A stretch of 64,000 bases of DNA from Eledone cirrhosa (taxonomy: Eukaryota), in assembly GCA_964016885.1 (NCBI GenBank), contig OZ024749.1, positions 44,144,001 through 44,208,000 of the forward strand, given 5' to 3'. Under the pieces are notes generated by a model. The model made no database searches, was not told where the DNA came from, and worked only from the letters and a program-made list of their open reading frames with translations. The translations under genes and the position numbers were made by a program. This document shows, piece after piece, positions 29,967-30,160 of the stretch (its first letter is position 1; every line of letters begins with the position of its first letter).

Positions 29967-30160
29967 TAATATAGATGAGATTCTACAGGACTAGAACTGT
30001 TTCATTCTTGAGAAATCATCAGATTCCTGATGATTTCTCAAGAATGAAACAGTTCTAGTCCTGTAGAATCTCATCTATATTAACACTTTTATACTCTGCT
30101 ATGTATTGAGTACCTTACTTACTGTGGTAACCTCCGATTCAACCTGGAATAACTTACCGA
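29967..30160 (+). mobile_element. Penelope-like terminal repeat with a perfect 56-bp inverted duplication
   Basis: Arms 29967-30022 and 30027-30082; tail ctctgctatgtattgagtac runs into (TA)n. Confidence 0.7.
30021..30071 (+). ncRNA. Complete monomeric type I hammerhead ribozyme; predicted cleavage after GUA at 30065
   Basis: Stem I AGATTC/GAATCT; CTGATGA; stem II TTC-TCAA-GAA; GAAA; stem III ACAG-8nt-CTGT. Confidence 0.8.

Follow-up and report, generated by a model that had tools for sequence, protein, structure and literature searches.

The locus raises the question of how a complete hammerhead ribozyme motif came to lie inside a perfect antisense copy of itself. Within the window, the 64,000-nucleotide stretch of Eledone cirrhosa DNA that was analysed, positions 29967–30022 and 30027–30082 are perfectly complementary over 56 bp around the loop ATTC, as the original prediction held. 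The palindrome is the longest perfect inverted repeat listed in the 64-kb window (arms of at least 15 nt, loops of at most 20 nt, low-complexity arms removed). Its folding z-score is −21.8, and none of 200 shuffled sequences was equally stable. Two things had been overlooked: the insertion runs on through a tail to 30158, and its family is very large. The palindrome locus is a 192-bp insertion (29967–30158) of a Hydra-clade Penelope-like element (PLE) in a (TA)n tract, with the following parts and surroundings; element numbering sets 30021 as +1.

29786–29964, minus strand: SINE-like neighbour repeat outside the insertion, of high depth, with ends at 29786 and 29964
29965–29966: TA, left remnant of the (TA)n target
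29967–30022, minus strand: inverted arm, element +7 to +62, terminating at 3' site A and abutting TA
30019–30030: head-to-head junction, TCAG-ATTC-CTGA
30021–30158, plus strand: direct arm, element +1 to +138 (pLTR end and tail), Hydra-clade Penelope-like
30021–30071, plus strand: type I hammerhead motif, with cleavage predicted after 30065; 30021 is +1, the putative transcription start of the parent element
30088–30158, plus strand: optional tail, carried by a single arm, between 3' sites A (+60 to +67) and B (+131 to +138)
30159–30180: right remnant of the (TA)n target

The direct arm is 94.9% identical over 138 nt to a full-length copy of the element (L148), while the hammerhead of the inverted arm lacks the stem I 5' strand. 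The arms meet at a microhomology of 2 nt (AG) within transcribed sequence, or 4 nt when positions −1 and −2 are counted. The copy carries neither the TATA box of its parent nor an extra G at +1, and no target duplication is discernible at the insertion ends. Symmetric TIRs and a fixed target duplication, the marks of a MITE or hairpin DNA transposon, were not found: the ends are asymmetric (A+B), junctions vary and the parent encodes an RT. The tandem hammerhead units of non-LTR retrozymes are likewise absent from the locus, which holds one inverted pair. On the left, the SINE-like repeat has A-box- and B-box-like motifs, which begin at about 29964 and are directed away from the palindrome. 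ARAGORN finds no tRNA in this repeat. Insertion within a SINE tail was considered and dropped, since the repeat points away from the palindrome.

The motif at 30021–30071 has the parts of a type I hammerhead: a CUGANGA core (CUGAUGA, 30027–30033), GAAA, an NUH site (GUA, 30063–30065) and three stems. Stem I has 6 bp, stem II has 3 bp with the loop UCAA plus a U.U at 10.1/11.1, and stem III has 4 bp and an 8-nt loop containing the palindromic CUAG. The U.U takes the place of the canonical G10.1–C11.1 pair, which is absent. Its reading as a defect was dropped, since it is common among Hydra-clade motifs, where it occurs in 14 of the 26 Hydra rows of supplementary file S2 of PMC8557442 by a by-eye count. 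A local Rfam search gave sub-threshold matches only (Hammerhead_HH9, 12.1 bits against the 52 required, E = 4.1), and the best 150 of 388 matches over the whole window were miRNA matches driven by microsatellites.

Comparison of subfamilies supports the fold, because the changes in stem I are compensatory between them. Among 50 copies with the stem I 5' strand AGATTC, 48 have the 3' strand GAATCT; among 30 with GGCTTC, 17 have GAAGCC and one has GAATCT. This covariation amounts to two compensatory pairs and is a single inherited event. Stems II and III are invariant in the same comparison, and loop II varies freely. On these comparative grounds the motif is a real hammerhead fold with predicted cleavage activity, and the three stems and GUA site proposed earlier stand. 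In RNA starting at +1, the active fold is predicted to be uphill of the ensemble by about 6 kcal/mol. With its palindromic loop III, the motif is expected to prefer a dimer: the stem III region is predicted at −12.8 kcal/mol as a dimer versus −1.4 kcal/mol as a monomer. Metazoan PLE hammerheads are reported to have low activity in vitro, the minimal motif that was tested being inactive as a monomer (PMC4209133), and the hammerhead of the PLE PAc required its protein (PMC11167929).

The size of the family was gauged by exact-match search of the 3.0-Gb assembly. One 30-mer of the insertion has 15,436 exact matches, and an older subfamily with the same head-to-head layout has 1,740. Among the first 100 matches of the 30-mer, 87 were fetched and 79 were kept after 8 overlapping duplicates had been dropped; this sample is drawn from the first 43 Mb of a single contig, and inclusion requires the exact 30-mer. 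Head-to-head pairs occur at 37 of the 79 loci, and 27 loci are minis, with both 5' ends between −5 and +25. Extrapolation from this last fraction suggests that about 4,000 of the roughly 12,000 exact-30-mer loci in the genome are minis.

In its native context the hammerhead follows a pLTR of about 430 nt, and the downstream sequence ends at A (+60 to +67) or B (+131 to +138), each then followed by (TA)n. Full copies continue past the tail into an ORF. Eight stretches were fetched around long open frames, four of which (L147–L150) have pLTR, hammerhead and tail and then a 758-codon frame (713 aa from ATG). Near-equal frames occur in two others (L151 and L153), one has other upstream sequence and one is truncated. 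The window itself has 138 stop-free frames between 17000 and 64000, and no other pieces of the full element were found in its 64 kb.

The 713-aa ORF contains the motifs RWR, DKT, YRDD, CxCx5C (CNCLNKEAC), a GIY-YIG-like motif, CxxC (CDLC) and CxH (CMH). Set against the motif definition of the Hydra clade in PMC8557442, the agreement is broad: a single short ORF with RT and then a C-terminal GIY-YIG in a body of less than 3 kb; DKT, with RWR as a variant of RWK; a CxCX5C linker, near-terminal CxxC and CxH, and no CCHH (its absence judged by eye); and a preference for insertion into (TA)n. The insertion structure is also that of PLEs, namely a pLTR with hammerhead, an inverted 5'-truncated copy and a tail optional on one end. 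Pfam found no RT family in the ORF and a weak GIY-YIG match below the cut-off (E = 0.025), and a PDB search gave nothing significant. By eye, the ORF resembles the Hydra-clade proteins of the supplement. Judged by motifs and architecture, the family is a Hydra-clade Penelope-like element, and copies with this ORF bear out the Penelope-like origin first proposed. Candidate RT matches in the genome number 41,968; many of the 150 that were scored hold stop-free frames of about 758 codons, so that the family may still be active.

By itself the locus is ordinary, and it is the family that is informative. Nor is the locus unique: its junction has 16 exact genomic occurrences with the identical loop variant (0 for the reversed control) and is seen, by eye, with other loop variants at 4 of the 79 sampled loci, and minis as a class are frequent in that sample (27/79). 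The lack of mismatches had been read as the mark of a recent event. However, 14 of the 33 arm pairs long enough to compare are free of mismatches, a figure biased by the exact 30-mer that anchors one arm, and at 30129 and 30145 the tail of the locus departs from every one of the 38 tail-bearing arms sampled, as it does at 30084 from 36 of them. Mean tail divergence among the sampled tail-bearing arms is 2.1%. As dated by these differences in sequence, the age of the copy is ordinary for its family.

No read or contig in four sequencing runs (X1, X4, X23 and X24) spans the locus, the signal in the reads being at family level only; the lack of a spanning record speaks for a fold-back or assembly artefact. 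We nevertheless regard an artefact as extremely improbable. The palindrome halts exactly at site A, with unrelated flanks beyond; thousands of loci follow biological rules; and joints linking left and right arm positions turn up both in contigs from short reads and, for other runs, in a few raw reads (for example 30007 to 30042/43). A read joint from 29964 to 30160 was considered as an empty allele and set aside, as it reflects other SINE copies with TA tracts.

The origin of Penelope-like inverted structures is stated as unresolved in PMC8557442. Here, three signatures can be counted across thousands of young insertions: each start site is represented by one arm, the arms share variants, and both may carry an extra G. 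In 34 of the 37 head-to-head pairs, one arm reaches site A and the other, with the 71-nt tail, reaches site B; the exceptions are one A+A pair, with a tail fragment alongside, and two pairs with an intermediate end. Single copies end at A in 23 cases and at B in 19, so that about 50% of pairs would be expected to be A+B (p = 5e-8). All 16 loci with the junction of the window, the window included, have the tail on exactly one arm; by eye, 7 of them have it on the loop-bearing arm and 9 on the opposite one. We infer a strand-to-site rule, by which site A would serve one strand and site B the other.

The second signature concerns the source of the arms. The loop II variant is common to both arms in 26 of 27 readable pairs, against a permutation mean of 12.0, and none of 100,000 permutations reached 26. 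Because the variants match in this way, the arms of a pair derive from one source, be it one RNA or two RNAs from the same source locus, between which shared variants do not distinguish.

The third signature lies at the 5' ends, 40 of 116 of which fall at −2 to +3, around the first base of the hammerhead (BLAST arm ends are uncertain by 1–3 nt at microhomologies). TATAAA at −31 and an Inr-like motif at +1 occur in two subfamilies with differing spacers. One copy (L009) has TATAAATA at −31 and an Inr-like TCAGATT. Genome-wide, the base preceding +1 is the native C in 7,978 cases, G in 1,868, T in 229 and A in 187, counts that cover the commoner loop variants and not that of the locus copy; G thus makes up 82% of the non-native bases. 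By eye, 29 of 30 sampled loci with this G are 5' junctions, and in about half of the 30 the G could derive from the partner arm or flank. At junctions directly after (AT)4, G is present in 65 and missing in 55, the window background being 4%. An extra G on both arms occurs in at least nine pairs among the first 100 entries tallied for the base before +1, six of them with the two 1 nt apart. In L1, an extra G marks copying of the mRNA cap (PMC11702581). We infer from these DNA junctions that the RNA of the element would start at +1 and be capped. Junctions at the cleavage site, with a start at +44 in 2 of the 37 pairs and in 1 of the 30 G loci, were weighed as a sign of cleavage and dropped, because microhomology in stem I gives the same result.

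The A+B ends, shared variants and double G favour double priming on a capped sense RNA over antisense self-priming, as read from the junctions. Probably, the reverse transcription behind the locus was primed by both strands of the cut target, at two fixed positions inside such an RNA, and was followed by run-off and end joining. The element RNA would begin, capped, at the first base of the hammerhead (+1). Priming by one target strand at site B (about +138) would yield the arm with the tail, and priming by the other at site A (about +62 to +67) the arm without it. With both sites near the RNA 5' end, the two cDNAs would run off after about 65 and 138 nt, often with a C added opposite the cap, and their 3' ends would be united through microhomology-mediated end joining. 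Here, joining at the AG overlap would have shortened the left arm to +7, with the 4-nt loop remaining. The template would have been uncleaved RNA, because both arms span the cut site. There is a biochemical precedent in a Penelope-like (Poseidon) protein that in vitro cuts and extends both strands from two internal start sites bounding the tail, uses uncleaved RNA and was modelled as a dimer (PMC11167929). In those assays the start site was equal for both strands, which by itself does not predict a strict A+B rule.

Shared variants and a recurring 4-nt loop would also arise by snap-back, in which one cDNA or antisense RNA serves as its own template after folding at the native TCAG/CTGA mini-hairpin, with later trimming of one arm at A by the endonuclease. 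Antisense self-priming has been proposed for rotifer Penelopes (PMC3846280), and snap-back fits the 7 of 16 loci, the one in the window among them, that have the tail on the loop-bearing arm. Simple snap-back cannot, however, produce the other 9, nor junctions in which both arms are complete to +1 with an extra G each, and an antisense template would neither halt at the sense start site nor add a G there. We therefore consider this route unlikely.

The recurrence of identical junctions raises another explanation, that many loci go back to few formation events and that short palindromes or solo pLTR transcripts were then copied as non-autonomous, MITE- or SINE-like units. Solo pLTRs do retain the TATA box, and 8 of 30 loci in one set are old copies multiplied with identical flanks. 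Such secondary mobilisation is nonetheless very unlikely to be the main source: junctions are diverse, flanks differ, and the same junction is found with differing loop variants and with either arm tailed. Solo pLTR transcripts serving as templates would, moreover, still follow the double-priming mechanism.

Under double priming, the locked ribozyme would be a by-product, and the copy, which has no promoter, would be a dead end save for read-through by a host transcript. In read-through RNA the arms are predicted to form a 56-bp duplex, and the hammerhead fold would cost about 72 kcal/mol, in line with the earlier view that the ribozyme is locked. That view also held that a short transcript starting at the junction would cleave. 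The junction does coincide with the putative start of the element, but the TATA box is absent and the SINE-like neighbour on the left points away; with the promoter situated upstream of +1 and thus missing from the copy, no short transcript would start at the locus. The construct suggested for assaying such cleavage, 30015–30085, is flawed, as an 8-bp hairpin remains over the catalytic core and imposes a predicted penalty of 11 kcal/mol, versus 6 for RNA from 30021.

The predicted duplex could be taken as the point of the arrangement, a selected switch in which the antisense arm would persist at this locus in order to inactivate the ribozyme or to supply ADAR or Dicer. This is hardly credible given that the layout is routine in the family (27 of 79 loci) and present in the older subfamily, that perfect arms are common and that the promoter is absent. 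A possible but doubtful extension of double priming is that a Penelope-like dimer, with both strands primed on one capped RNA, mass-produces some 4,000 near-perfect hairpin loci, whose read-through dsRNA would be edited or diced and would silence the element, acting as a built-in brake.

Several of these traits have been described before. Inverted pLTRs, one-arm tails and junction palindromes are published (PMC8557442, PMC3846280), as are opposite-strand hammerheads about 100–700 bp apart (PMC4209133), and the locus belongs to this known kind, the inverted pLTR insertions. The Hydra-clade PLEs of Craig et al. 2021 (PMC8557442; for example Hydra-2_Amil, Penelope-13_HM and Hydra-1_Obim) have the same ORF motifs, short body and (TA)n target, their canonical hammerheads likewise have U.U at 10.1/11.1 in 14 of 26 rows, and Penelope-13_HM includes an inverted copy, truncated at its 5' end, and has hammerheads on both strands. 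The present family differs from the clade as described there in several respects. Its hammerhead sequence is unlike every Hydra row compared, Hydra-1_Obim included; loop III has 8 nt with a palindromic centre instead of 1–3 nt; the tail measures about 71 nt instead of 30–40; and ORF-less minis make up a third of the sampled loci.

Closest in biochemistry is Poseidon PAc of Anolis (Frangieh et al. 2024, PMC11167929), with the same two internal start sites bounding the tail, extension of both strands, uncleaved RNA as template and a hammerhead just upstream. PAc belongs to a different clade, and the parts of the main text compared here contain no derivation of inverted structures, nor a rule tying strand to site, nor a signature of the cap. 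Penelope of Adineta vaga (Arkhipova et al. 2013, PMC3846280) has the same head-to-head inverted pLTRs, of which one is tailed, junction palindromes and likewise a putative TATA box and Inr in the pLTR. It was explained there by self-priming on an antisense template, whereas the junctions of the present family point to two cDNAs from capped sense RNA. Twin priming of LINE-1 (PMC11702581) shares the second reverse transcription from the other target end, joining by microhomology and the extra G at full-length 5' ends. L1, however, inverts adjacent, nearly non-overlapping RNA segments from variable sites, whereas this family copies the same 5' segment from two fixed sites, which yields a palindrome. 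Within the titles and abstract openings searched, we found no A+B rule with both-arm cap signatures in Penelope-like elements. Copies with uninterrupted ORFs make the double-priming model testable in vitro.

Non-LTR retrozymes also carry a pLTR-derived type I hammerhead (PMC7229834; bioRxiv 10.64898/2026.07.22.740005); they are tandem as described in these sources, whereas the locus is inverted, though the family has tandem hammerhead arrays of about 78 nt as well. One such retrozyme-like array (L001, G000:C28:30658413-30661477) consists of ~78-nt units of the same hammerhead, and the joint between units is found in reads too. Tandem hammerhead arrays may explain a strand skew in the exact-match counts.

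Elsewhere in the window, another repeat is present twice (41847–41955 and 53794–53872), with an inverted duplicate and a (TA)n end. This repeat has a hammerhead-like 3' half (GAAAC, a palindromic loop and GUC), and similar sequence flanks two sampled loci (L043 and L046); it probably represents a further family of Penelope-like elements that also inserts head to head. CUGANGA...GAAA motifs on the plus strand at 5841, 8586, 20701 and 33863 lie in repeat fragments, three of them closely trailed by (TA)n, and are likely pLTR remnants from other families. Outside the window, a decayed hammerhead copy is multiplied in the first 7 Mb of contig C1 (L185–L189, L193, L198 and L199); its flanks are identical, and it is therefore borne by a larger repeat or duplication. 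The window also holds a perfect 27-bp inverted repeat with an 11-nt loop at 1527–1591, within a longer imperfect one, a 7-kb CAA-rich array at 9500–16730 with periods of 9/12/15 nt and 153 nt and strong AT skew, and a 47-nt minisatellite at 19143–19708 (12 copies, 97% matches).
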